Origin: Candidatus Rokuibacteriota bacterium
GTDB lineage: Bacteria; Methylomirabilota; Methylomirabilia; Rokubacteriales; CSP1-6
Assembly (NCBI GenBank): GCA_003221455.1
Contig: QHRX01000009.1
Span: forward strand, 10,031-74,030
DNA: 64,000 bases
Direction: 5' to 3'
Shown here: positions 695 through 52,119 of the stretch, in pieces
Layout of the letters: each line of letters opens with the position of its first letter
Numbering within the stretch: the stretch's first letter is position 1
Translations under genes and position numbers: made by a program
Notes under the pieces: generated by a model
What the model was told of the DNA's origin: nothing
Databases searched by the model: none
Seen by the model: the letters and a program-made list of their open reading frames with translations, nothing else

Positions 695-1825
695 CTACCT
701 GAGTGTGTCGCGGAGCTCGCGGGTCAGCACCTCGACCGTCCCCCGCGTCCCGCCGGCGAGCTTCTGCTTCCACTCGCCCTCGGTCTCGAAACGGCGGTCG
801 CGCAGGCGCTCGCCCCACGGCTTGATGGTCTCGCGGATCGCGTGGAGCTCGAACGGGTCGCGCCGGAGCTCCCGGGCGCGGGCCATGATGTCGGGCGCGA
901 CCCGGATGAACGCCCGGAGCGCCGCCCCCGTCTTGATGGAGTACTTCCGGCCCGCCCACGCGTTCGGGAAGACGCCGGCCAGGGCCTTGACGTAGTTCAA
1001 GAAGAAGCGCTTCGCGCCCTGGCGCAGTTCCTGGATGCGCGCGGCGCCGCCGACCTTCTCCACGGTCTCCAGGAGCTCGACGATCTCCTCGGCGAGCGGC
1101 GCCTGGCTCACCCGGCCGCGGCCCGTGCCGAGCATCTTGATCTCGCCGTGGAGCGGCGACGTCTCGTCCTCGTTGAGCGAGCGGATCACGTCGTGGGCGA
1201 GGGCCTGGTTCGGGTCGGGGTAGAGCTTGCGACCGGCCAGGCTGATGATGTGCGACGGGTTGAGGCGCGTGTGCTTGGCGTTGATGGTGACGAAGAGCTC
1301 GACGATCTGCCGGGCGTCGAGGGTGTCGAAGAGCACGGCCGGCACCTCGATGCCGAAGGTCTCGCCCGACTGGGAGAGGGCGTGAAGCGCGAGCAGGCGG
1401 TGCTGGCCGTCGAGGACGCGGAGCACGCCCTGCTCCTCGGGGATCTGCAGGAGCCCGAGGTCGTGGTGGCTCGCCAGCGGCGTGAACGTGAAGCGCTTCT
1501 CGGACGTGATGATGACAGCGCCGGGGATCGCCGGGAGCGTGGCCGCCTCCTTGCACTCCCGGTAGTAGGCCACGAGCTCGTCGATCTTCCGTCGGATCAC
1601 CGGCCGCTGGTACGCGATCTCGCTCTCGCTGATGCGCTTCTCCAGAACCTCCCAGTTCACGCGCCCGCGGTTGCCGCGGGCGGGCTTGGTGGTGACCTTG
1701 GGGGCCCCCCCCGTGTAGCCGAGCACCTCGAACTTCACGAGCCGATCGATGTCCTTGGCCGAGAACGAGGCCTGGTAGAACTCGACGCCGAACTGCTTCA
1801 CGCGGTGGGCGTGGACGGTGATCAT
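695..1825 (-). CDS. DGQHR-domain protein (DndB/DpdB-like, ParB-like nuclease superfamily)
   Basis: Contains the exact DGQHR motif (VLDGQHRLLAL). Its 376 aa length is typical of DndB. No dndACDE, dptFGH or dpd partner genes are visible in the window. Confidence 0.75.
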   Translation of the reverse strand: MITVHAHRVKQFGVEFYQASFSAKDIDRLVKFEVLGYTGGAPKVTTKPARGNRGRVNWEVLEKRISESEIAYQRPVIRRKIDELVAYYRECKEAATLPAIPGAVIITSEKRFTFTPLASHHDLGLLQIPEEQGVLRVLDGQHRLLALHALSQSGETFGIEVPAVLFDTLDARQIVELFVTINAKHTRLNPSHIISLAGRKLYPDPNQALAHDVIRSLNEDETSPLHGEIKMLGTGRGRVSQAPLAEEIVELLETVEKVGGAARIQELRQGAKRFFLNYVKALAGVFPNAWAGRKYSIKTGAALRAFIRVAPDIMARARELRRDPFELHAIRETIKPWGERLRDRRFETEGEWKQKLAGGTRGTVEVLTRELRDTLR

Positions 1826-1955
1826 TGCCGTGTCATGCTAATCGAAGCGCAAATCCCAGTCAATCGACGCGGTGCCCGACGGGGCGCGCCGGGGCGCGGC
1901 CCCTCTATTTTGTGGTCCGCGCGGAGCGGGACGGCATCCGTGGGATTCCCCGGGG

Positions 1956-7145: not shown

Positions 7146-7175
7146 TTGACACGTCGAACAATCGGATGCTATTCG
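7146..7175 (+). promoter_or_regulatory. candidate sigma70-like promoter for the downstream membrane glycosyltransferase gene
   Basis: Perfect -35 TTGACA at 7146-7151. A 17-nt spacer is followed by CTATTC/TATTCG as a weak -10. It lies about 30 nt upstream of the ATG at 7207 in a 320-bp non-coding gap. Confidence 0.3.
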
Positions 7176-7206
7176 TGGGGCCCATTTGCGCCGGCACACA
7201 TCACGC

Positions 7207-8658
7207 ATGAGGGCCGGGACGTCCGCGGCTCAGGGCCTCCTGGCGGCGGCGCTCGCGGTGGTCGCCTTCCGCCTCGCCTGGTCGTCGCGAACCTGGCCGC
7301 TGATCCACGACGCCCCCCTCATGCACTACATCGCCTGGCGCATCCAGCACGGCGCCGTCCCGTACCGCGACCTATTCGACATGAACGCGCCCGGCCCCTA
7401 CCTGATCCACCTGCTCGTGCTGCGGACGCTCGGCGGGGGCGACCTGGCCTGGCGGATCTTCGACCTCGGCTGGCTGGCGCTCACCTGCTGGGTGGTGGCG
7501 CTCTACGCGTGGCCGGTCGGCGTCGGCCCCGCGGCGGTCGCCGCCGCGCTCGTCGCCCTCTACCATCTCGCGGGTGGCGTGTGGCTCGCCGGCCAGCGCG
7601 ACTTCCTCCTCTGCGCGTTCCTGATCGGAGGGGCGCAGCTGGTGGCGTCGCCGGCCACCTGGTGGCGCCTGATCCTGGCGGGGGTCGTCGGCGGGGCAGG
7701 GGTCACGCTGAAGCCCCCCGCCCTGATCTTCTTGATCGTGCTCGCGCTGGTGGCGGCCGTCGCGGCGGCGCGCGAGGGCCGGGTCTGGTGGACGCCACCC
7801 CTCGCCGTCCTGGCCGGTGGCGCCGCGGCGCCGCTCGGGTGCCTCGCCTGGCTCGCCTGGACCGGCGGGCTCCGGGCCTTCGTCGAGATCTTCGTCGAGT
7901 ACGACCTCCCGGTCTACTCGCGGCTGGCGCGCGTTTGGCCGTGGACCGCGCTCGGCTGGTGGCCGTTCGGCTGGCGCGTCTGGGCTCTCTTCGCCGTGCT
8001 CGTCCTGGCCGCCGGCGCCACTCGGCGCTGGGACACGCGGCGGGCGCTCGTGCTCGCGGGCCTGGCCTATGGCGTCGTGCACTTCCTGGCGCAGGGCAAG
8101 GGCTGGGAGTACCAGGTCTATCCGCTGGCCACGTTCGCTTGCCTCGGCGCCGGCTTCGCCATGGCGGCCCCCGCCCGCGCGGTGCGGGGGACGGCGCTCC
8201 TGGCCTCCGCGCTCCTCGGCCTCCAGCTCTACGTCAAAGGCGTTCAGGAACTCCGGCCGGCGTGGATCACGGCGAAAGCCCAGCGCGTGGACCGCATCGT
8301 GGCCGACCTGCGGGGTCGCGTCGGGCCGGAGGACACAGTCCAGGTGCTCGACACGGGCGAGGGGGGCGTCCACGCGCTCCTCAGGCTCGGCGTGCGCCAG
8401 CCGACGCGCTTCATCTACGACTTCCCGGTCTTCCACGACGAGGACCGGCCGGTCGTCCGGCGCCTCCGCGCCGAGTTCCTGCGCGAGCTCGAGGCCGCGC
8501 CGCCAAAGTTCATCGTGGTCCTCGAGCGCGGCTGGCCGTCGGGGGACTACGCGCGGATCGCCTGCTTCCCCGCGCTGGCCACCTGGATCGCGGCCACCTA
8601 TCGCCTCGACCGGGAGGGCCCCGAATACCGGGTCTATGCGAAGCGAGCAGATCTTTAG
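7207..8658 (+). CDS. GT-C fold membrane glycosyltransferase (ArnT/PMT/DUF2029-like), polytopic
   Basis: About 11 predicted TM helices. N-terminal periplasmic-loop motif (YRDLFDMNAPGPYL) typical of dolichyl/undecaprenyl-phosphate-sugar-dependent transferases. The ORF finder used an upstream TTG at 7186. Confidence 0.5.
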   Translation: MRAGTSAAQGLLAAALAVVAFRLAWSSRTWPLIHDAPLMHYIAWRIQHGAVPYRDLFDMNAPGPYLIHLLVLRTLGGGDLAWRIFDLGWLALTCWVVALYAWPVGVGPAAVAAALVALYHLAGGVWLAGQRDFLLCAFLIGGAQLVASPATWWRLILAGVVGGAGVTLKPPALIFLIVLALVAAVAAAREGRVWWTPPLAVLAGGAAAPLGCLAWLAWTGGLRAFVEIFVEYDLPVYSRLARVWPWTALGWWPFGWRVWALFAVLVLAAGATRRWDTRRALVLAGLAYGVVHFLAQGKGWEYQVYPLATFACLGAGFAMAAPARAVRGTALLASALLGLQLYVKGVQELRPAWITAKAQRVDRIVADLRGRVGPEDTVQVLDTGEGGVHALLRLGVRQPTRFIYDFPVFHDEDRPVVRRLRAEFLRELEAAPPKFIVVLERGWPSGDYARIACFPALATWIAATYRLDREGPEYRVYAKRADL

Positions 8659-17784: not shown

Positions 17785-19068
17785 CTACCGGGTGCGCCGG
17801 GCGCGGTGGAGCCAGAAGTGCTCGGCGCGCATCTCGAGCCGCGCGGCGAGGAGCCGCGTCCCCCGCTCGAGGTCGCCGGCGCGGAAGCACGCCTCGAGCA
17901 GGGTGTCGTGGAAGACGTCCCGCTGCGCGCGGCTCCCACCGAGCTCGACGATCCGCGGCGAGAGCGACTCGATCCGCTCGATCACCCGCGCATAGTCGCC
18001 GCCCGCGAACGCGTGGAGCCCCTCGATGAGCGGGATGGCCACGCCCGCGACGAGGTCAGAGCGATCCTTGGCGGCGCGCTCCCGGAGGAGGCCGAGCTGC
18101 TCGCCCGCGGTCGCCCAGTCCCCCGCCATCGCGAGCGCCATCGCGAGGTGTGCCGCGTGGTAGAGGAGGCCCGGGCGCCTCACGCGCTCGCGGGCGATCG
18201 CCGCGAACGGCGCCCAGGCGCCGCCCTGCGGGCGGCCGTAGAGCTCGAAGCGCCAGAGGAGCGAGATCGAGTCGTGCAGGTCGCCCGCGATCGACGAGGG
18301 CGCCAGCTCGAATACCTCGCGCGCGAGCGCGCGGGCCCGGTCGTAGCCGCCGCAGGCGAGGTGCATCAGAGCGAGGTGCCACAGCAGGTGGTCGCGAAAC
18401 CAGCCGAGCTGGACGCAGGGCTCAACCCGGGCCGGGAGCGCGGCGAGCCCCTCCTCGCTCCGGCCCGTCTCGTAGAGCGCGTGCGCGAACGCGTGCACGG
18501 CCCACGCGTCCCGGGCGTCCCGCGCGAGGGCGGCCTCGGCGGCGCGGAGGGCCTCGGCGCGCCGGCCTCCTTCCTCGAGGGCAAACGCGTGGAGGCCGAG
18601 CATGAACGAATCGTCCGCGTTCGCGGCCGCCAGGTCCCCGGTGAGGGCCAGCAGCTCCGCGAAGCGCCCCTGCCAGAAGAGGATGAAGTAGAGCCGCTGG
18701 AGGATCACGAGGTCGCGCGGGTAGGCCGCGAGGTGCGCGCGCATCGCCGCCTCGGCCTCCGTCGTCTTGCCGCCGGTGAGCAGCGCGACCGCCTCCACGT
18801 GGCCGCGCTCGCGCGCCGACTGGGCCTCGGCGGCCAGACGCGCGCCCGCCGCCTCGGCGCGCGCCTCCTGGAACCGCTCGTCGAGGAACAAGCAGACGGC
18901 CGCCCCGGCGCGGGCCAGCGCGAGCCGCTCGTCGCGCGCGGCGGCGGCGCGGAAGCGCTCGAGCGCGCCCGCGTCCCACGCGAGCAACCCACGCGCGCCG
19001 AGGTCGTAGAGATCGAGCGCCCCGCGGTCGGTCGTCGTGACGCCGAGTCCGCGCCCGTCAGCCAGCAT
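17785..19068 (-). CDS. TPR-like helical repeat protein (TTC38-family-like)
   Basis: All-helical repeat composition along the full length. Start placed at an internal Met (MLADGRGLG). No catalytic motif. Confidence 0.45.
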   Translation of the reverse strand: MLADGRGLGVTTTDRGALDLYDLGARGLLAWDAGALERFRAAAARDERLALARAGAAVCLFLDERFQEARAEAAGARLAAEAQSARERGHVEAVALLTGGKTTEAEAAMRAHLAAYPRDLVILQRLYFILFWQGRFAELLALTGDLAAANADDSFMLGLHAFALEEGGRRAEALRAAEAALARDARDAWAVHAFAHALYETGRSEEGLAALPARVEPCVQLGWFRDHLLWHLALMHLACGGYDRARALAREVFELAPSSIAGDLHDSISLLWRFELYGRPQGGAWAPFAAIARERVRRPGLLYHAAHLAMALAMAGDWATAGEQLGLLRERAAKDRSDLVAGVAIPLIEGLHAFAGGDYARVIERIESLSPRIVELGGSRAQRDVFHDTLLEACFRAGDLERGTRLLAARLEMRAEHFWLHRARRTR

Positions 19069-19133
19069 CCGGGGCAGGATACTACAGCGCGGGGACGGGC
19101 CGCGCGAGCCCGCCCCGCGGGGGCGGACCCGGC

Positions 19134-19613
19134 CTACGTCGCAGAGAGGAAGGACCGGAGCATCCACGCCATCTTCTCGTGGCGCTCCAGCAGCCCGGTC
19201 AGGAAGTCGCTCGTGCCGACGTCATGGTGCCGATCGACCGCGACGGCGAGGTCGTCGCGGAGCTGGCGGATGACCGCCTCGTGGTCGGCGAGCAGGTCCG
19301 CCACCATGCCCGTCGCGTCGGGGATCGTGCCAGGTTGCTCCTTGAGCCGCGCGTGATGCGTGAACTCGGCAAGCGTGCCCCGGGCCCGGCCGCCCAGCGT
19401 CCGCGCCCGCTCGGCGACGTCGTCGACGACGCCGTCCAGCTCCTCGTACTGCGCCTCGAAGAACGTGTGCAGGTCGTTGAACTGCGGGCCGGTCACGTTC
19501 CAGTGGTAGTTCCGCGTCTTGGTGTAGAGCAGGTACTCGTCTGAGAGCACGTCGTTCAGGATCGTCACAACGGACGCGCGAGGCGCATCCGGGATACCGA
19601 TGTTGGGTGCCAT
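19134..19613 (-). CDS. dps: Dps family DNA-protection/ferritin-like protein
   Basis: Dps ferroxidase-site pattern (YHWNVTGPQFNDLHTFFEAQYEE). 159 aa. Confidence 0.8.
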   Translation of the reverse strand: MAPNIGIPDAPRASVVTILNDVLSDEYLLYTKTRNYHWNVTGPQFNDLHTFFEAQYEELDGVVDDVAERARTLGGRARGTLAEFTHHARLKEQPGTIPDATGMVADLLADHEAVIRQLRDDLAVAVDRHHDVGTSDFLTGLLERHEKMAWMLRSFLSAT

Positions 19614-37191: not shown

Positions 37192-37780
37192 GGCGCGAGT
37201 CCTCCGATCGATCGGTCGGGGCGGGAGCGTCGGCCGGGCGGCCGTCGGCGACGTGGTCGAAGGTGAAGGTGGCCCGGACCTCGGGCGGGTTGCGGAGCGT
37301 GTCGAGGATCGAGCAATAGCGCTCCGCGGACGCGAGCAGGCGCCGAGCCCGCTCCGCGTCACCACCGCGCACGACGACGTGGGTCCGGACCTCGAGCTTC
37401 TGGATGCCGACCTTCGTCGTGCGGTCGAGGGCGAGCGTCCCGCGGAGGTCGGACGTCCCGGTCACGGTCACCCGGACGTCGTCCAGGGCGAGACCCATGT
37501 TGGCCGCCACCATCCGCACCGTCAGCTCCTGACAGGCCGCCAGCGCGGCCTCGAGCACGTCGCCGGGGCACGGCAAGGTGCCGTCGCCGCCCGCGACCGG
37601 ATGGAGGCCCACCGTGATCTCGAAGGCCCGGCCGTCGGCGCGGCCGATGCGGACCCGCATGGGATCGCGCAGGTCCGAGGGAAGGCTCTGCACCGTGTCG
37701 GCGATCCTGGCCCTGTCTGGATGCTGCCTGAGGTCCTCCTTGAGCGAGGCCTGGTGCCGGCGGACGTCCACCGAATACAT
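37184..37780 (-). CDS. OsmC/Ohr family protein
   Basis: OsmC pattern, including the second conserved Cys region (ASAERYCSILDTL). Confidence 0.8.
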   Translation of the reverse strand: MYSVDVRRHQASLKEDLRQHPDRARIADTVQSLPSDLRDPMRVRIGRADGRAFEITVGLHPVAGGDGTLPCPGDVLEAALAACQELTVRMVAANMGLALDDVRVTVTGTSDLRGTLALDRTTKVGIQKLEVRTHVVVRGGDAERARRLLASAERYCSILDTLRNPPEVRATFTFDHVADGRPADAPAPTDRSEDSRHG

Positions 37781-37804
37781 ATGGGGTCTCCTCGAGGGCG
37801 CGCC

Positions 37805-38041
37805 CTACTTGTGGCCGCCGGCCAGCACGCCGCCGCTGTCTACGGTCCCGCCGATCGGGCCGGGCGTGGTCAGCGCGGCGTCGTCGCGTCGGTAGTCGGG
37901 CCCGCGGTGGGCCGCCTGCCGGGGCTCGAGCGAGGCGCAGCCGCCGAGCATCGCAGCGAGCCCGAGCCCTACCAATCCCGCGAGCACGGTCTTCGTCGTC
38001 CCACGCGCGTCGGTCTGGGCGCTCCGGGCACCATCGTACAC
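37805..38041 (-). CDS. small lipoprotein, hypothetical
   Basis: Lipobox (AAMLGGCAS) after a hydrophobic stretch. 78 aa. Confidence 0.35.
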   Translation of the reverse strand: MYDGARSAQTDARGTTKTVLAGLVGLGLAAMLGGCASLEPRQAAHRGPDYRRDDAALTTPGPIGGTVDSGGVLAGGHK

Positions 38042-38310
38042 CGGCGACGCCCGTCGCGGGGCCGCGCCGCCTCCCCGGATTGAGCCGGGGCGTCCCGGAA
38101 GCCGCGAGGCGGCTCCGGGGACTCGCGTCAGCCTCCCGACGTCCGAATGTCTTCGCCCGATCCGACGCCTCCCTGGAAGTCCTCGAAAACGAACCGCTGT
38201 GTGTGGGGTCGACGGCTGGTACGGGGGCTGCAGCCGCCTTGGATGCCCCGGGACATTTTGACGCTCGGCGCGCCTGGGAGGTCGTTCCCTCTCCGCTGAA
38301 GGAGGTCGGG

Positions 38311-39552
38311 ATGGTTGAGCAGCTCGTCCGGGCGGTTCCGGAACGGTGGCGGGAGATCGCGGGGGTGGTGGCCGCTCCCGTCATCTGGATTCCGCCGATG
38401 CAGCGAGCCATCGCGCAGTTCTTCCTCGAGTCCCCGTCGCTGTGGATCGCCGCCGTGAAATACGTGCTCCTCCTCTTCCCGGCGGCCCTCTGGGTCGTCG
38501 CGGTCTGGTGCACGCAAGGCGCGCTCTACACGCTGCCCTTTCGCGGCCGGCGCCAGGCCTTCGTCTCCACCATGCTGCTCATGTGGTGGGACGCCGTGCG
38601 CGCCGCGTGGCTCTACTGGATGGGGGTCCTCCGTCTCGCCGTGGTGCTCGTGGGGTGGAGCGCCATGTTCGTCAGCCTCGGCATGAAGCTGATGGCACGG
38701 GGGGCGGTCCGGCTGGCCGGGCTGCCCGTCACGGCGAGCAAACGGCTGGCGAAGCACCATTCCCGGCCCGGGGTGCCCTGGATCGCCGTCCTCATGTTCA
38801 GGTTCTGGTGCTTCGTGGAGGCCACGGTGTTCACCTGGGTCCTGTTCCCGACGGTGTCCACGGTGGTGGCGAAGTTCGTCGGTCCCGCCCACGCGCGGGC
38901 CTACACGGCGCCCGTCCTCTACGTCTTCCTGCTCCTCCTCGTCAGGGGAAGCTTCGCCAGCCTGCGGGCGCTCGCCGACGCCGTCAAGACGCACGAGCGC
39001 GAATGGCTGGCCCAGATCGTCGTGGTCGGGCTGTCCGTGATGGTGTTCGAGGTGTTGGTCCTCTACCGGGAGCTGGTGCACGTCCTGGCGTCCTGGATCG
39101 CCGCCCGGACGGGCGGGAGGTACGAGCTCGGCGCGTGGCTCACCGTGGCCATCCCGCTGGCGGGCTGGATCAGCGTCCGCAGCATGACGTGGTTCTTGTT
39201 CGCGCAATTCGGGACGCCGGCGCTGCCCGCCCATCTCGGGCGCCGGCCGGCGATCGAGCCGAACGGCCGGCCGATCACGGTGCCGCCGACGTCGGGCGGC
39301 GGCGGGTGGCGGGCAGAGCTGGACGAGCTCGGGCGGGGGATGGGCTGGCTGCACGAGAAGAGCGACGAACTGCTCGAATATTTGGCGCTCCCCGTCCTCA
39401 CGGTCCTGGCCGTCGCCCTCAATTTCGGCATGGTCCTCGTGACGTCGCGGCCCGCCTTCAGCGTCCCCTTCAAGGGTCTGAAGGCCGTGCCGGACACGGG
39501 GGACATTCTCGCGGCGATGGCCCCGCCACCGAGGAAGGGCGTCAGCGCGTGA
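38311..39552 (+). CDS. polytopic Trp-rich integral membrane protein, uncharacterised
   Basis: Strong GAAGGAGG RBS 5-8 nt upstream of the ATG at 38311. About 8 predicted TM helices. No recognisable family. Confidence 0.55.
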   Translation: MVEQLVRAVPERWREIAGVVAAPVIWIPPMQRAIAQFFLESPSLWIAAVKYVLLLFPAALWVVAVWCTQGALYTLPFRGRRQAFVSTMLLMWWDAVRAAWLYWMGVLRLAVVLVGWSAMFVSLGMKLMARGAVRLAGLPVTASKRLAKHHSRPGVPWIAVLMFRFWCFVEATVFTWVLFPTVSTVVAKFVGPAHARAYTAPVLYVFLLLLVRGSFASLRALADAVKTHEREWLAQIVVVGLSVMVFEVLVLYRELVHVLASWIAARTGGRYELGAWLTVAIPLAGWISVRSMTWFLFAQFGTPALPAHLGRRPAIEPNGRPITVPPTSGGGGWRAELDELGRGMGWLHEKSDELLEYLALPVLTVLAVALNFGMVLVTSRPAFSVPFKGLKAVPDTGDILAAMAPPPRKGVSA

Positions 39553-44767: not shown

Positions 44768-45598
44768 TCAGAAGACCTCGTCACGCTCGCCGAACTCGAA
44801 CTCCTCGGTCCGGTCGTCGAGCCCCTCGCGGGTCAGGATCCCCCCCTCGATGAGGAGCCCCTCGAACGCCCGGAGCCAGCGTTCGTAGTAGGTGGACTCC
44901 TCGCCGCGGGTCTCGGCGGCGGCGATCTCGGCGCTGAGGCGCCGCTGGAAGTCCCGCCAGTCGTAGACGCGTCGATCCTGGAGCGCGACCGCCATGCCGA
45001 AGACGCGCCCCTGCCAGGGCGCCTCGAAGAGGAGCTCCCCGTTCCGCCGGGGAACGGCAGCCGGCCCGTCCATGTTCGCGACGAGGCGGTCCGGCGTCGG
45101 CGCCGAGGGCCCGGGCGCCGTGGGAGGGGGGACGAGGGGGGCGCCGTCGCCGGACCCCGCGCGGGGCCGGAGATGGCGATCGTCGACGGGCTGGCCGTCC
45201 GGGCGCTCGACCCACGTCGAGGCGGTGAACTGGAGAGCGGCGAGAGCGGGCGGGGGTGGCTGCCAGCCATCCGCCCCGAGGAGCTCCTCGACATAGTCGT
45301 AGAGCGCCCGCGCCTGGGCCTCGGAGTTGATCGAGTGGAACCAGGCCTGGCGGCCGTCGAAGAGCAGCATGACCACGTTGGCGAGGCGGCAGGGGCCGAG
45401 GCAGCCGCCGATGGTGAGGTGGACGCGGTGACGCAGGCTCCGTCGCTCCCACTCGTCGTGGAACCGCGCGCGCGGCACCGGCGGGAAGCCGGCCTCGGTG
45501 CGGCCGCAGCAGCAGCCGTCGGCGCAGACGAAGAGGTGGCCGCGCGTGCGCGGCACCTGGAGGCGTCGGCCGTCGGCTCGGGACACGATGTTGCGCAT
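44768..45598 (-). CDS. nitrile hydratase accessory/activator-like protein with N-terminal thioredoxin-like [2Fe-2S] ferredoxin domain
   Basis: N-terminal HLFVC..C.C...(about 30 aa)...GGCLGPC..ANVVML.FDGRQAW matches the Trx-like 2Fe-2S ferredoxin pattern. C-terminal half resembles NHase beta/accessory proteins (LFEAPWQGRVFGMAVAL, YYERWL). Confidence 0.55.
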   Translation of the reverse strand: MRNIVSRADGRRLQVPRTRGHLFVCADGCCCGRTEAGFPPVPRARFHDEWERRSLRHRVHLTIGGCLGPCRLANVVMLLFDGRQAWFHSINSEAQARALYDYVEELLGADGWQPPPPALAALQFTASTWVERPDGQPVDDRHLRPRAGSGDGAPLVPPPTAPGPSAPTPDRLVANMDGPAAVPRRNGELLFEAPWQGRVFGMAVALQDRRVYDWRDFQRRLSAEIAAAETRGEESTYYERWLRAFEGLLIEGGILTREGLDDRTEEFEFGERDEVF

Positions 45599-45623
45599 GG
45601 CGGCGTCGACGGAGGCCGCGAGA

Positions 45624-46238
45624 CTACCGCGCCGGGGCCGCCGCCGTCACCCGGGCCACCCCGATCATCGCGTCACGGGTGACGAGCCGCGCCAGCTCGG
45701 CCTCGCCGAGGTGCCCGGTGCCGGCGGGGCGTTCGGGCAGCACCAGGTAGCGGACCTCGGCGCTGCTGTCCCAGACCCGAACCTCGACCGACTCGGGGAG
45801 CTCGAGACCGAACTCGCGCAGGAGCGTCCGCGGTTCGAGCACGGCCCGCGAGCGATAGGCGGGCATCTTGTACCAGTTCGGTGGCAGCCCCAGCACCGGC
45901 CACGGATAGCAGGAGCAGAGCGTGCAGACGACCAGGTTGTGCACGGTCGGGGTGTTCTCCACGGCGACCAGCTTGTCGCCGCCGCCGCGGCCGCCGAAGC
46001 CGAGCTCCGCGATGGCCGCGGCGCCGTCGGCGAGGAGCCGCTGCTTGTAGGCCGAATCGACCCAGGCGCGCGCCACCACCCGGGCGCCGTTCATCGGGCC
46101 GACGTCGTTCTCGTAGATGGCCACCAGCTTGTCCACGACGTCGCTGGACAGGAGCCCCTTCTCGATCAGCAGCGACTCGAGCGCCCGCACGCGGAGCGCC
46201 GGGTACGGCTCGGGCTCGGAGTTATGCGTGCCGCCCAT
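45624..46238 (-). CDS. nthA: nitrile hydratase alpha subunit (cobalt type)
   Basis: Metal-binding claw [10 protein letters not shown]. The Thr/Tyr variant is typical of Co-type enzymes. 204 aa. Confidence 0.85.
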
Positions 46239-46274
46239 CGTCCTGCCCTCCGCCTGGCCGGGAGGCCGCGGCGG

Positions 46275-46949
46275 TCACGCCGGCTCCAGGTAGCTCTCCC
46301 ACAGGTCCAGGTACACCCACGCGCCGGGCTCGGCGCTCTCGCCCCAGAGCTCCCGGCCCTCGAAGCGGACGCTATAGAGGGGCTGCGGCTGTCGCCCGCG
46401 GCCGTGGGCGTGAGCGTCGGGCAGCGTGTAGACGCCGTGGAAGCGCTCGATCGCGCCGTGGCGGCCGCGGGCGTACCGCGGCAGGCGCGTGTGGCCCGCC
46501 GGGTGCGTGTTCCGGGTCAGGACCCGGTCGCCGGCGCGGAAGCGCGGCGCCGGCGCCGCCTCGCTCTTCGCGGCGCTGCCCGCCCGGACGGCGTGGAGCA
46601 GGCGCGCGCTCAGCGCGGGATCGTCGCGGCGCGGGTGCGCCGCCGGGTTCGCGCCAAGGGCGGCCGTGCGGACGTCCAGCTCGATTCGCTTCACCACGCC
46701 CTTCTCGATCAGGAGCGTCTCGACGGCGGCAAACCAATGCTCGTAGTACCCGGAGGCGAGGTAGTGGGCGGCGCCCATGCGCTCGATGCCGTGGCGGAAC
46801 TCGTCGACGTTGTAGAGCCGCTGCGTCATCGCCGCGACGTTCATGGCGAGCACGCGCTTCTCCCAATCCGCGTGGAAGACCGGCTCGTTCGGCTCACGCG
46901 CGACCGGCCCGAACCCCTGCATCCCGCCGAGGTCGTGGACGCCGTTCAT
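46275..46949 (-). CDS. nthB: nitrile hydratase beta subunit
   Basis: MNGVHDLGGMQGFGPV N-terminus and C-terminal beta-barrel half. Start at the internal ATG (46949) of a longer ORF. Confidence 0.8.
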   Translation of the reverse strand: MNGVHDLGGMQGFGPVAREPNEPVFHADWEKRVLAMNVAAMTQRLYNVDEFRHGIERMGAAHYLASGYYEHWFAAVETLLIEKGVVKRIELDVRTAALGANPAAHPRRDDPALSARLLHAVRAGSAAKSEAAPAPRFRAGDRVLTRNTHPAGHTRLPRYARGRHGAIERFHGVYTLPDAHAHGRGRQPQPLYSVRFEGRELWGESAEPGAWVYLDLWESYLEPA

Positions 46950-47008
46950 GCGCGCATGATCGACGAACGCCCACGGCGCGTCAAGCGGCGCGGGCGGCGA
47001 GGTCGGGG

Positions 47009-47677
47009 TCAGTCGACGAAGGCGACGGCCCGCACGGGCGAGCCGTCGGCGCCCTCGATCGCGAGCGGAAGGGCCGCGAAGCGGCAGCGCGGCCGCCGGA
47101 TCTCGTGCAGATTCGCCAGGTACTCGATGACCGTGACGCCGGCCGGGAACAGGATGAAGTGGGTCGTGCTGTCCTCGCGCGCGAGCGGGGTGTCGGGGCG
47201 GAAGATCATGTCGCGGATGCAGTAGTCGGGCGGGTAGTCGTAGCCGACCGCCTTCACGCGCCGCCGCACGAGCCAGTGGCACGCGCTCGCGTCCGTGTAC
47301 GGCGCGTGGCTCCAGAAGCGCTCGGTCTCGACGCCCACCCGGAGGGGCCAATCGGTCCGCAGGAGCACGATGTCTCCACCCCGCACGTGCTGGGCCCGCT
47401 GCTCGAGCTCGGCGGCCGTCACGGCGCCGTTCTCGCCGAGGTGCGTGAGGTCCACCACCACCGCGTCACCGATCCACTGGTCCACCGGCATCTGGGCGAT
47501 GTGGCGCGCGCCGGGAAGGAAGTGCGACGGTGCGTCGACGTGGGTGAACGCGTGGCACGGCATGGTCACGCTGGTGGACTGGAAGACGTCGCCGCGATGG
47601 TGGGAGCCGCGGACCTCCGTCGCGACCTTCCAGCGGAAGTGCGTCTTGATCGGCAGGCTCAGGTCGACGACGCGCAC
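47009..47677 (-). CDS. cyclase-family metal-dependent hydrolase (kynurenine/aryl-formamidase-like)
   Basis: Cyclase fold motif (HAFTHVDAPSHF) and downstream His/Asp/Glu metal ligands. Confidence 0.75.
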   Translation of the reverse strand: MRVVDLSLPIKTHFRWKVATEVRGSHHRGDVFQSTSVTMPCHAFTHVDAPSHFLPGARHIAQMPVDQWIGDAVVVDLTHLGENGAVTAAELEQRAQHVRGGDIVLLRTDWPLRVGVETERFWSHAPYTDASACHWLVRRRVKAVGYDYPPDYCIRDMIFRPDTPLAREDSTTHFILFPAGVTVIEYLANLHEIRRPRCRFAALPLAIEGADGSPVRAVAFVD

Positions 47678-47688
47678 CCGTCCTCCGA

Positions 47689-48804
47689 TCAGAGCCCGAC
47701 CGTGTAGCGGGCGAGGCGCGTCTCGTCCACCTCGACGCCGATGCCGACACCGTCGGGGACGAACGCGTAGCCGTCCTTCACGACGAGCGGGCGCTTCACG
47801 ATGTCGTCGGCCAGCCAGCCCGCCGGCCCGACGTGAAAGTCCCCGCCGAGCGAGGCGTTCCAGGTGGCCGCGTAGAAATGCGCGGCGGTCGCGGAGCCCA
47901 CGCTCGTCCCCGGCTGCCCGCCCGGGTAGATCGGAAGCGAGGCCGCCTGGGCGATCGCCGCGATCCGCTGCGCCGCGTAGATCCCGCCGTGCTTGGCGAG
48001 CTTCATCCCGAAGATCGAGGCGGCCCGCCGCCGCACCAGCTCGAGTGCGGACTCCGGCGAGTGCAGGCTCTCGTCGGGCATGATCGGGACACCGGCGAGC
48101 TCGATGAGCCGAGCCATCCCGTCGAGGTCGCCGAGGCCGAGCGGCTGCTCGACGAGCTCGAGCTTGAACGGGGAGAGGTCGCGGAGGAGCGCCAGCGCCT
48201 GATCGAAGCCGAACACGCCGTTGGCGTCGACCCGGAGGCCCACCTCCGGCCCGACGGCGTCCCGGACGGCGGCGACGTTTTCGATGTCCTCCGCCGCGTG
48301 CGCCGAACCGATTTTCACCTTGACCAGGCGGAAGCCGCGGCCGAGCGCCCAGCGCGCCTCATCGGCCATCCGGCGGCGGTCCTGGATCCCGATCGTCCAG
48401 ACGACGGGGATCCGGTCGCGGTAGAGGCCACCCAGGAGCTGGTGGAGGGGGACCCCATACGCCTTTGCGTTCAGGTCGTAGAGCGCGTCGACCACGGCCG
48501 CCTTGGCGTACGGGCTTCCCGCGATCGCCGCCTCCATGTCGCGCACGATACGCTCGACCTCGAACGGACTCCGGCCGATGAGGACGGGCGCGAGGCGCTC
48601 GCGGATCAACGGGACGATCGTGGCCTGCGACTCGGTGCAGCCCTGGAAGCCCTCGAGCGGCTGCGTCTCGCCGAGGCCGGCGAGCCGGCCCGCCCAGAGG
48701 CGCACGATCACGTTGTCCTGGTGCTCGAGCACCCCCGTGGCGAGCTTGAGCGGGATCCGGTTCGGGAGCCGGATCGGGATTACCTCCACGCGATCGATCG
48801 TCAT
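47689..48804 (-). CDS. enolase-superfamily enzyme (mandelate racemase/muconate lactonizing enzyme family)
   Basis: KVKIG... capping/barrel pattern with metal ligands (LRVDANG, ELVEQP, MPDESL). Start at ATG 48804 inside a longer ORF. Confidence 0.8.
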   Translation of the reverse strand: MTIDRVEVIPIRLPNRIPLKLATGVLEHQDNVIVRLWAGRLAGLGETQPLEGFQGCTESQATIVPLIRERLAPVLIGRSPFEVERIVRDMEAAIAGSPYAKAAVVDALYDLNAKAYGVPLHQLLGGLYRDRIPVVWTIGIQDRRRMADEARWALGRGFRLVKVKIGSAHAAEDIENVAAVRDAVGPEVGLRVDANGVFGFDQALALLRDLSPFKLELVEQPLGLGDLDGMARLIELAGVPIMPDESLHSPESALELVRRRAASIFGMKLAKHGGIYAAQRIAAIAQAASLPIYPGGQPGTSVGSATAAHFYAATWNASLGGDFHVGPAGWLADDIVKRPLVVKDGYAFVPDGVGIGVEVDETRLARYTVGL

Positions 48805-50288: not shown

Positions 50289-51404
50289 TTACACCTTCAA
50301 ACCGAAGAGCCTGGCGGCGTTTTCGCCGAGGAGCCTTCGTTTCAGGTCTGACCCGAGGTCCGACCGGCCTGCCACCGTCGAGACCGAGTCGGGGCACATG
50401 CAGTCGAAGTGGGCGTAGTCCGAGGCGTACATGAGCCGGCCGTCCCCGACCCGCGCCGCGACGAATGGCACCGTCGTCTCCTCGGGCTCGATCGTGTAGA
50501 AGCAGCGGTCCGAGGCCATCTGCTCGGCCGGGTCGCGCGTGAGGTGGGGGAGCTGGTCGGAGAAGAGCTCCCAGTGCTCGTGGACCCGCTCCATCAGGTA
50601 CGGGATCCAGCCGCAGCCCGCCTCGAAGACGCCGATCCGGAGCCCGGGGAAGCGCTCGAGCACGCCGCCCGCGAGCATCCCCGCGAAGGCCATGAACACG
50701 TCGGCGCCGTAGAACACGTGCTTGAGGAAGAAGTTGTCGAACCGGTCGGCGCCGACGGTGCGGGCGGAGAGAAGGTGCAGGCACGCGGGGACGCCGAGTT
50801 CCTCGGCCGCCGCGTAGATCGGGTCGAAGCGCCGGGCGCCGGGATCGCGCCCGTCGGGCCAGGTGGGGACCCGCACGGCCACGAGCCCCTGCTCCCGCAC
50901 GGCCCGTTGGAGCTCGCGGGCGCCGGCCTCGGGGTCCTGGAACGGGACCGCGGCGACGCCCTTCAGCCGATCGGGCGCCGCCCCACAGTACTCGGCGAGC
51001 CAGTCATTGTAGGCGCGGCAGGTGGCGAGCGCGAGCGCGGGGTTCTCGACGAGGCCGATCGCGGCCGAGGAGAGGGCGCCGCCGAAGAGGACGGCGACGT
51101 CGATCCCTTCGAGGTCCATGTCGGCCAGCCGCGCCTTGGGATCGGTCATTCCCGGGCGGCCGGTCCACTGGTGGGCGGGCTTGTGCACGGTGATGGGCCG
51201 GCTCCCGCGCCCCCACTTGTCCTCCCAGCGCGGGAAGACCTTCCCCTCGATCGTCAGACGTCCCTGGCCCGACTCATGGCGCCCGTCGGAGATGTAACGG
51301 GGCGCCCAGTCCCCCCAGTCCCCGTCGAGGCGCCTGACCCAGTCGACCCCGGTTTCCTCCACGTGGCCGTCCGCGTCGATGACCGGGTATCCGAGTGAGT
51401 TCAT
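50289..51404 (-). CDS. amidohydrolase-2 family protein (ACMSD-like metal-dependent hydrolase/decarboxylase)
   Basis: VIDADGHV N-terminal metal site. TIM-barrel amidohydrolase_2 pattern with a downstream His and Asp (YASDYAHFD). Confidence 0.8.
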   Translation of the reverse strand: MNSLGYPVIDADGHVEETGVDWVRRLDGDWGDWAPRYISDGRHESGQGRLTIEGKVFPRWEDKWGRGSRPITVHKPAHQWTGRPGMTDPKARLADMDLEGIDVAVLFGGALSSAAIGLVENPALALATCRAYNDWLAEYCGAAPDRLKGVAAVPFQDPEAGARELQRAVREQGLVAVRVPTWPDGRDPGARRFDPIYAAAEELGVPACLHLLSARTVGADRFDNFFLKHVFYGADVFMAFAGMLAGGVLERFPGLRIGVFEAGCGWIPYLMERVHEHWELFSDQLPHLTRDPAEQMASDRCFYTIEPEETTVPFVAARVGDGRLMYASDYAHFDCMCPDSVSTVAGRSDLGSDLKRRLLGENAARLFGLKV

Positions 51405-52119
51405 GCCCGTCCTCCTCCAGCTTCGTCGGCGGTCCCGGACGCCAGTTGTAGGCGCCGGGCCCGCCCCTGTCAAGGTCGCGATCGCCGATTCGGATCCGGC
51501 TCAGTCCGGGTCAGGGCGACCATCCCTCTTCGTGCCCGTTCGTGGCGAGGGGAGCAAGCCGCAGCTTCCGGAATGGGTTCGGCGACGGCAGGACTTTCGC
51601 GTTCTTGCGAAAAAGAGCGCGCCCGGGCGAGCGAAGCACGGCACTCGACCATCCCAATGTTGACTCGGTTGCGGGCCGCACCGACGGGGGAGAACAACGC
51701 GGCGGCGGTCAGAATCCGGAGACCGCGTGCATGGAGGAACCCAGCTGACATTCAGGACGAGACGCTTCCTGGTGGCGACAGGCGTAGTGCTACGTGCGAC
51801 CCTGCGAGGCCTACTGCCATCGTACGTCCAGGGCGTCGACTCGGACCGGCTCCTCAACGCGGACTAAGGATGGCACTGCGCCATCAAGCCCGAAGGAACA
51901 CGATAGATGGAGATCGACGAAACGGTTCGATGGGCTCCCCGGACGGGGACCCAACGGACGAGGGAGAGACTCTCGATACGCGGCATGATCCATCGCCCGC
52001 GGATCCCGAGGCGGCTCGGGAGGGGAGTGCGCATAGTGCGCCGACAGGGGAAGTCGGCTCCGCCGGTGTTGGGAGTGGTGATCGTGGCTGGAACGACGGA
52101 GTGGCGAGGAGACCGTGAC

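Follow-up and report, generated by a model that had tools for sequence, protein, structure and literature searches.

A six-cysteine ferredoxin-like domain, shared by a nitrile hydratase activator and CobN in uncultured bacteria, is a candidate metal-insertion module

Introduction

What does a ferredoxin-like domain do on the protein that activates a cobalt-type nitrile hydratase (NHase)? The question is raised by a 64,000-nucleotide stretch of a Candidatus Rokuibacteriota genome (GenBank assembly GCA_003221455.1, contig QHRX01000009.1, positions 10,031 to 74,030), hereafter the window, in whose coordinates positions are given unless another locus is named. Five genes on its minus strand (44768-48804) end in an NHase activator gene whose product carries an additional N-terminal domain with the predicted fold of thioredoxin-like ferredoxins. 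Known activators of Co-type NHases hold the apo-alpha subunit, mediate the insertion of cobalt, and swap the loaded alpha subunit into the enzyme (PMC3511329, PMC7193024, PMC7329996). They behave as metallochaperones without having a known metal site (PMC7193024). Comparisons of sequence and gene context suggest that the added domain is a metal-insertion module, most likely one that supplies cobalt, with a role that extends beyond NHase alone.

Results

The activator is a two-domain protein

The activator gene is directly downstream of the genes for the NHase beta and alpha subunits, 25 bp past the latter, and encodes the following parts.

44768-45598, minus strand: NHase accessory (activator) fusion protein, 276 amino acids (TIGR03889, PF21006, homologues, AlphaFold model)
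45194-45598, minus strand: N-terminal thioredoxin-like-ferredoxin-fold (TLF) domain, residues 1-135
45506-45526, minus strand: C25-A-D-G-C29-C30-C31 motif, holding ligand positions 1 and 2 and two extra invariant cysteines (translation, alignments)
45389-45403, minus strand: C66-L-G-P-C70 (GGCLGPC), ligand positions 3 and 4 (translation, alignment to the hidden Markov model, HMM, of FeSI)
45032-45178, minus strand: variable linker rich in Pro, Ala and Gly, residues 141-189 (predicted local distance difference test, pLDDT; alignment; composition count)
44771-45031, minus strand: NHase-beta-N-like accessory domain, residues 190-276 (TIGR03889, PF21006, PDB profile)

The C-terminal domain scores 67.5 bits against TIGR03889 (cut-off of 46; residues 191-258), matches PF21006 (E 2e-13), and has a PDB profile that matches the beta subunits of Co-NHases (E 4e-9). 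In an AlphaFold (AF2) model of the 276-residue protein built on 48 homologues, residues 1-135 have a pLDDT of 80-97, the linker (residues 141-189) falls below 50, and residues 190-268 form a helical C-terminal domain. The linker also varies in length and sequence across the alignment. Most homologues with the TLF domain ahead of the accessory domain (TLF-acc, the arrangement in the window) have a conserved cysteine in the linker (consensus AC..PP), which neither the window protein nor its closest relatives have.

A protein of this kind could be two adjacent genes merged by an error of assembly or a frameshift, and merged or broken entries do exist in the family (P0037, P0314, P0392, and locus L002). 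For the window protein, the chance that this explanation is correct is negligible. The identical 276-residue protein recurs, with the same neighbours, on 14 contigs drawn from different metagenome assemblies, more than 120 clusters (90% identity) span 100% of the length of the fusion at 56-92% identity, and the reading frame continues unbroken through the variable linker. The fusion of a TLF-fold domain to an NHase-beta-like accessory domain, as read in the initial annotation of the window, is therefore conserved in a single continuous open reading frame (ORF), and the internal stop or frameshift that would have marked it as an artefact was not found. The odd entries, together with P0483, have fragments of NHase alpha joined to TLF or accessory sequence, or have broken genes, and look like artefacts of long-read frameshifts or gene calling rather than extra architectures.

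Six cysteines are invariant in the N-terminal domain

The N-terminal domain has a ferredoxin-like pattern that is far above chance, and its predicted fold matches those of thioredoxin-like [2Fe-2S] ferredoxins. Six cysteines, C25, C29, C30, C31, C66, and C70, are invariant across 48 full-length homologues and 32 domains that represent three architectures. Four of the six align with the ligand positions of TLFs. In an HMM alignment, C25, C66, and C70 coincide with ligands 1, 3, and 4 of FeSI, and the GCLGPC loop is identical to that of FeSI from Azotobacter vinelandii. In a profile alignment, C30 coincides with the second cysteine of the CX4C motif of the HydB type. The domain probably binds a [2Fe-2S] cluster through C25/C30/C66/C70, an arrangement that would leave the thiols of C29 and C31 free beside the cluster. 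The TLF pattern and fold that had been read from the letters are upheld, but the domain is about 135 residues long rather than 90 and its first motif is C-x3-CCC rather than C..C.C.

The domain adds two elements to the TLF fold, a beta-hairpin at the N-terminus and a helical extension at the C-terminus. In TLF-acc forms, the extension is conserved across residues 110-140 (nucleotides ~45179-45270; PPPP..FTAS.W..RPDGxPVDD). Its place is taken by F(D/S)VFDW in forms in which the TLF domain follows the accessory domain (acc-TLF) or is fused to CobN, and the extension may be a docking element specific to architecture.

The domain has no match to PF01257, Fer2_BFD, or an HdrB-type CCG domain in Pfam even at E ≤ 10, and Fer2_BFD, which had been put forward as a profile to compare, can be set aside. 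Curated TLF models give only weak NCBIfam scores that fail their thresholds (NF041613, 19.9 bits versus a cut-off of 195; NF041612, 14.4 versus 150). There is likewise no match in the domain to PF02492 (G3E GTPase), and its fold is that of a TLF, not a P-loop protein. The window domain does not match DUF1636 (PF07845); distant members of the family score 12-23 bits against this model (best 22.9, E 1e-4), below the cut-off of 31.6. Across phyla, the mean identity of the domain is 68%, and the CCCG motif persists in members that are merely 36-45% identical.

The domain family is associated with activators, CobN, and metal transport

Searched against 1.84 billion sequences (representatives of clusters at 50% identity), the domain yielded 440 matches at E ≤ 1e-3, 233 of them at E ≤ 1e-10, and the family has the signature C-x(2,3)-CCCG...GC[LIM]G[PA]C. 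In a scan of GTDB species genomes, 509 stretches encode relatives. Taxonomy was read on the best 80 of the 509. All are metagenome-assembled genomes (MAGs), from Rokubacteria/Methylomirabilota and Chloroflexota (Dehalococcoidia, Thermomicrobiales, etc.) with few others. Among genomes, the fusion gene has its closest relatives in Rokubacteria/Methylomirabilota MAGs. The family is uncharacterised, is without a Pfam model, and is seen only in uncultured lineages. We found nothing in the literature that describes the domain in the context of NHase or CobN, or NHase in Rokubacteria.

The domain occurs in several arrangements with NHase activators. Among the loci of these relatives, ~60 have the order NHase beta, NHase alpha, fusion gene, and 121 of the retrieved proteins are of the TLF-acc type. 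Another 88 retrieved proteins have the permuted acc-TLF order in a single ORF, in Thermomicrobiales and Chloroflexia (e.g., locus L085, 2943-3809, 288 amino acids). In locus L090, a separate TLF gene follows a short accessory gene. In locus L091, the run of genes is NHase beta, alpha, accessory, TLF-like, and a Ni/Co permease of the NicO family.

The same domain is also fused to the N-terminus of CobN. Long ORFs of this architecture are in loci L077 (1534 amino acids) and L071 (1448) and in proteins P0374 (1484) and P0375 (1449), and many N-terminal fragments of further TLF-CobN proteins are found in Chloroflexota and Planctomycetota. The neighbourhood of P0374 is CbtB-CbtA-[TLF-CobN]-ChlID-CbiC/X-CbiD-methyltransferases-CbiG. 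Six TLF-CobN loci were checked for cobW, and none has it within 8 kb. In the TLF-CobN locus L082 (8001-8417), the TLF part has an in-frame stop, either because it is a pseudogene or because of a sequencing error, and this copy was left out of the alignment.

Stand-alone TLF-like genes have more varied contexts. Those in loci L088 (6001-6453) and L095 (8001-8498) encode distant members, ~40-59% identical, and lie beside genes for COG0523, Fur, ZnuA, WD40, and HisI/QueD-type paralogues; these clusters look like Zur regulons (compare PMC2770081). In L087, a stand-alone gene follows FecCD/ABC importer genes. The stand-alone gene of L001 (8001-9559) overlaps an MR_MLE gene by 4 bp with no NHase nearby. 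The product of that MR_MLE gene is 29% identical to the MR/MLE enzyme encoded in the window, which makes a second, unexplained link between TLF-like and MLE-type genes.

In a neighbour-joining tree without bootstrap, domains of acc-TLF proteins cluster with those of the CobN type and away from those of TLF-acc proteins. This split suggests that the activator gained the domain at least two times, independently, and in both orders, and we regard the tree as indicative only. Many members of the family are called cobaltochelatase CobN or cobalt chelatase by JGI and NCBI, because of the CobN-linked contexts. For members of this domain family, the labels are misleading.

The nitrile hydratase is of the cobalt type

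The enzyme served by the activator is encoded by two genes.

46275-46949, minus strand: NHase beta, 224 amino acids (TIGR03888, PF21006 and PF02211; start agrees with the gene call in locus L093)
45624-46238, minus strand: NHase alpha, 204 amino acids (TIGR01323)

Both subunits exceed the cut-offs of their models (alpha, TIGR01323, 298.1 bits versus 249.85; beta, TIGR03888, 274.2 versus 152.2). The metal-binding motif VCTLCSCY spans residues 104-111 of alpha (nucleotides 45906-45929), and by the criterion that separates the types (C-T-L-C-S-C-Y for cobalt, C-S-L-C-S-C-T for iron), it is of the cobalt type. Every one of the solved structures nearest to alpha is a Co-type NHase (E 1e-74 to 1e-94), with Fe-type NHases and thiocyanate hydrolase ranked behind. 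Among the loci that were fetched, 73 of 73 alpha-subunit motifs are the Co-type CTLCSCY. By sequence, the operon is that of a cobalt-type NHase with the order beta-alpha-activator, as initially proposed. The NHase itself is ordinary, and the novelty is in the domain appended to its activator.

The cyclase and MR/MLE genes are restricted neighbours

Two further genes precede those of the NHase on the same strand, and the gap between the two groups has a promoter-like site.

47689-48804, minus strand: enolase-superfamily MR/MLE enzyme, 371 amino acids
47009-47677, minus strand: cyclase-family (PF04199) metal-dependent hydrolase, 222 amino acids
46956-46984, minus strand: sigma-70-like promoter match TTGACG-17-GATCAT, in the 59 bp that separate NHase beta from the cyclase gene

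From MR/MLE to activator, the ORF calls leave gaps of 11, 59, 36, and 25 bp. Coordinates and curated HMMs agree on the minus-strand run of MR/MLE, cyclase, NHase beta, NHase alpha, and accessory genes, and independent gene calls on public contigs give equal lengths for all five.

The cyclase matches PF04199 (102 bits, E 4e-29) and has an intact HxxTHxDxPxH metal motif (HAFTHVDAPSH from residue 42, nucleotides 47522-47554). Among solved structures it is closest to isatin hydrolase and kynurenine formamidase, both amide hydrolases (E ~1e-13), but it fails the arylformamidase equivalog TIGR03035 (66.3 bits versus a cut-off of 223). The MR/MLE enzyme matches PF13378 and PF02746 and has a KxK motif (KVK at residues 162-164), which place it, by sequence, in the MLE subgroup of the enolase superfamily. 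The solved structures closest to it are those of (chloro)muconate cycloisomerases (E 4e-59), but it fails the muconate/chloromuconate cycloisomerase model TIGR02534 (260.3 bits versus 334.95).

It had been proposed that these genes form one catabolic operon with those of the NHase, in which the cyclase would hydrolyse the amide made by the NHase and the acid so formed would be converted by the MLE-type enzyme. Consistent with this, all five genes are on one strand, the gaps that involve the two enzymes are short (11 and 59 bp), the metal motif of the cyclase is intact and the solved proteins nearest to it cleave amide bonds, and the arrangement is kept in loci L004, L093, and L094. In addition, among the ~45 window ORFs scanned, neither an amidase-signature nor an aldoxime dehydratase domain was found, in agreement with the initial annotation. 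Conservation nevertheless stops at the closest relatives of the window. Locus L008 has the MR/MLE gene without the cyclase, and ~60 other fusion loci have neither gene. Both enzymes score below the thresholds of their equivalogs, and no substrate can be inferred. The promoter-like site in the gap ahead of NHase beta (one match found versus 0.1 expected in shuffles) also argues against a single unit and is a weak hint that the NHase genes may be transcribed on their own. The pathway is chemically still possible, but the distribution of its genes leaves it unsupported and we consider it unlikely.

Upstream of the cluster is an Amidohydro_2 (PF04909) gene (50289-51473, minus strand). At least 10 Rokubacteria-type loci (L002, L015, L017, L020, L026, L027, L029, L036, L046, and L056) have a relative of ~30% identity, placed ~2.3 kb upstream of NHase beta, making Amidohydro_2 a more widely conserved neighbour of NHase than either the cyclase or the MR/MLE gene.

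Downstream of the cluster are genes for a converging sugar-type ABC transporter and for a PhyH dioxygenase. Searches of the window with tblastn found no cobalt transporter, cobN, or cobW, and there were zero Rfam matches, to a cobalamin or NiCo riboswitch or any other RNA control element, in the whole window. The window has a G+C content of 70-74%. Three ORFs of 478-602 amino acids with high G+C at third codon positions (7150-8658, plus strand; 17785-19221, minus strand; 37744-39552, plus strand) have no Pfam match at E ≤ 1e-5. Near the left end is a gene for a DndB-like protein (PF14072, associated with DNA-sulfur modification; 695-1837, minus strand).

Discussion

We suggest that the N-terminal domain supplies the activator with cobalt. 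We place this reading first among those considered, and judge the case for it to be evenly balanced. It is favoured because the partners of the domain, CobN, NicO, CbtAB, COG0523, and the NHase activator, share the delivery of a divalent metal, mostly cobalt, and not the oxidation of cysteine. In a mechanism of this kind, the beta-like C-terminal chaperone module would hold the apo-alpha subunit, and the flexible linker of ~50 residues would tether that module to the six-cysteine domain. The metal or cluster site of the N-terminal domain would capture Co(II) and hand it to the cysteine-rich site of the docked alpha subunit, which the domain may also hold in a reduced state. The loaded alpha subunit would then be swapped into the alpha2beta2 enzyme. 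We infer each of the ligation by cysteines, the transfer of cobalt, and the order of events.

Several observations weigh against cobalt supply. All sequences of the family derive from MAGs or metagenomes, and its function is argued from sequence. The Zur-like contexts of loci L088 and L095 may point to the delivery of metals in general and not of cobalt specifically, and the stand-alone copies of L001, L005, and L075 are in contexts with no evident link to metals. The GCLGPC loop, together with the four canonical ligands, speaks for a conventional [2Fe-2S] electron carrier, which need not bind cobalt. Furthermore, well-studied Co-NHases mature without such a domain.

A stronger form of the proposal is that the six cysteines bind cobalt directly, and the domain is a nucleotide-independent metallochaperone built on a ferredoxin scaffold that serves both CobN and NHase alpha. 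One possible site is a binuclear thiolate cluster of the M2Cys6 type, with C29 and C31 standing in for the two bridging sulfides of [2Fe-2S]; another is a Co site that would adjoin the cluster. We hold direct binding only tentatively and think it unlikely to be correct in either form. If true, the domain would replace or complement CobW-type GTPases and show the source of metal for activators of Co-type NHases.

The reading we rank second is that the domain is purely a redox module. An ordinary [2Fe-2S] ferredoxin could open the CTLCSC site to cobalt by reducing a disulfide that obstructs it, the part played in vitro by dithiothreitol (DTT), and might also take the electron released as Co(II) becomes Co(III). 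The extra cysteines C29 and C31 would supply a CxC dithiol/disulfide pair linked to the cluster, much as in ferredoxin:thioredoxin reductase. The domain has the fold and the four canonical ligands of a TLF, and the modelled, tethered design would put a redox centre near the alpha subunit. In vitro, a thiol reductant (DTT, 2-mercaptoethanol, or glutathione [GSH]; PMC7329996) must be present for cobalt to enter apo-alpha-activator complexes, and a redox role has already been proposed for the activator (PMC7329996; PMC7193024 citing Zhou 2009). But the fusion to CobN is difficult to reconcile with this role because the corrin substrate of CobN has no cysteines to reduce, and the Zn-type COG0523 neighbours have no obvious redox step. 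TLFs are also low-potential carriers of one electron, a poor fit to two-electron disulfide chemistry unless the extra cysteines take part. Thus, an Fe-S redox role, as initially suggested, is possible and fits the need for DTT, whereas a device specific to NHase does not fit a domain that is also on CobN and near NicO, CbtAB, and COG0523. Overall, we consider a purely redox role improbable. We rank third, and as a distinctly remoter prospect, a sensor or gate, in which an Fe-S or metal site is structural or regulatory, reports on O2, iron, or cobalt, and switches the chaperone or chelatase. There are precedents in the Fe-S centres of CbiXL, ferrochelatase, and BchH, which are dispensable for catalysis and unexplained (PMC7689651), and the domain is appended to proteins that otherwise look complete and functional. 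Against a sensor are the extreme conservation across phyla, the existence of the domain as a separate gene in operons, and its independent recruitment to both ends of the activator. Together, these suggest an active partner rather than a passive regulatory appendage.

The window protein resembles the activators NhlE, NhhG, and P14K in that its C-terminal domain passes TIGR03889 and is similar to the N-terminus of NHase beta, and the gene order is beta-alpha-activator (PMC3511329; PMC7193024). Known activators, however, are single-domain proteins of ~100-150 amino acids with no recognised metal or redox site, whereas that of the window adds a 135-residue, six-cysteine domain and a linker. The added domain has in common with TLFs (FeSI, 5abr; Aquifex Fd4, 1f37/1m2a; N-terminal domains of NuoE and HydB) a predicted TLF-type fold and cysteines at the four ligand positions. 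Unlike TLFs, it has a CCC triplet, the hairpin, and the C-terminal extension, fails the curated models, and is partnered with metal-insertion systems instead of dehydrogenases or nitrogenase.

The nearest described concept is DUF1636 (PF07845), which has a TLF-related fold (PMC4520260), heads Cbl/cobalt-insertion clusters, and is suspected to take part in the insertion of cobalt (PMC4520260; bioRxiv 10.64898/2025.12.19.695462). Matches to it from distant members of the six-cysteine family are weak and below the cut-off. By description, DUF1636 has three of the four ligands and one atypical cysteine and is without the CCCG signature. COG0523 GTPases share the niche, as CobW serves CobN and Nha3, the activator of Fe-type NHase, serves NHase, and their CxCC metal site is reminiscent of the CCC in the six-cysteine domain (PMC2770081; PMC11672702). 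The window domain differs in having no GTPase domain and an unrelated fold, and in L088 and L095, the TLF-like gene adjoins those of COG0523 and does not replace them. The proteins studied here are also similar to CbiXL with its 4Fe-4S centre, [2Fe-2S] ferrochelatases, and BchH, in that a metal-inserting enzyme has an Fe-S-type cysteine cluster of unexplained function (PMC7689651). Those chelatases have other folds and motifs, while the six-cysteine module is common to a chelatase, CobN, and to a chaperone of a protein metallocentre, the NHase activator.

The six-cysteine module is a concrete candidate for a partner in cobalt supply or redox chemistry during the maturation of Co-type NHases. 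Because Co-NHases are used in industry, co-expression of the module might raise their yield in heterologous hosts. More broadly, one shared, uncharacterised domain family ties the maturation of NHase to the insertion of cobalt into cobalamin.

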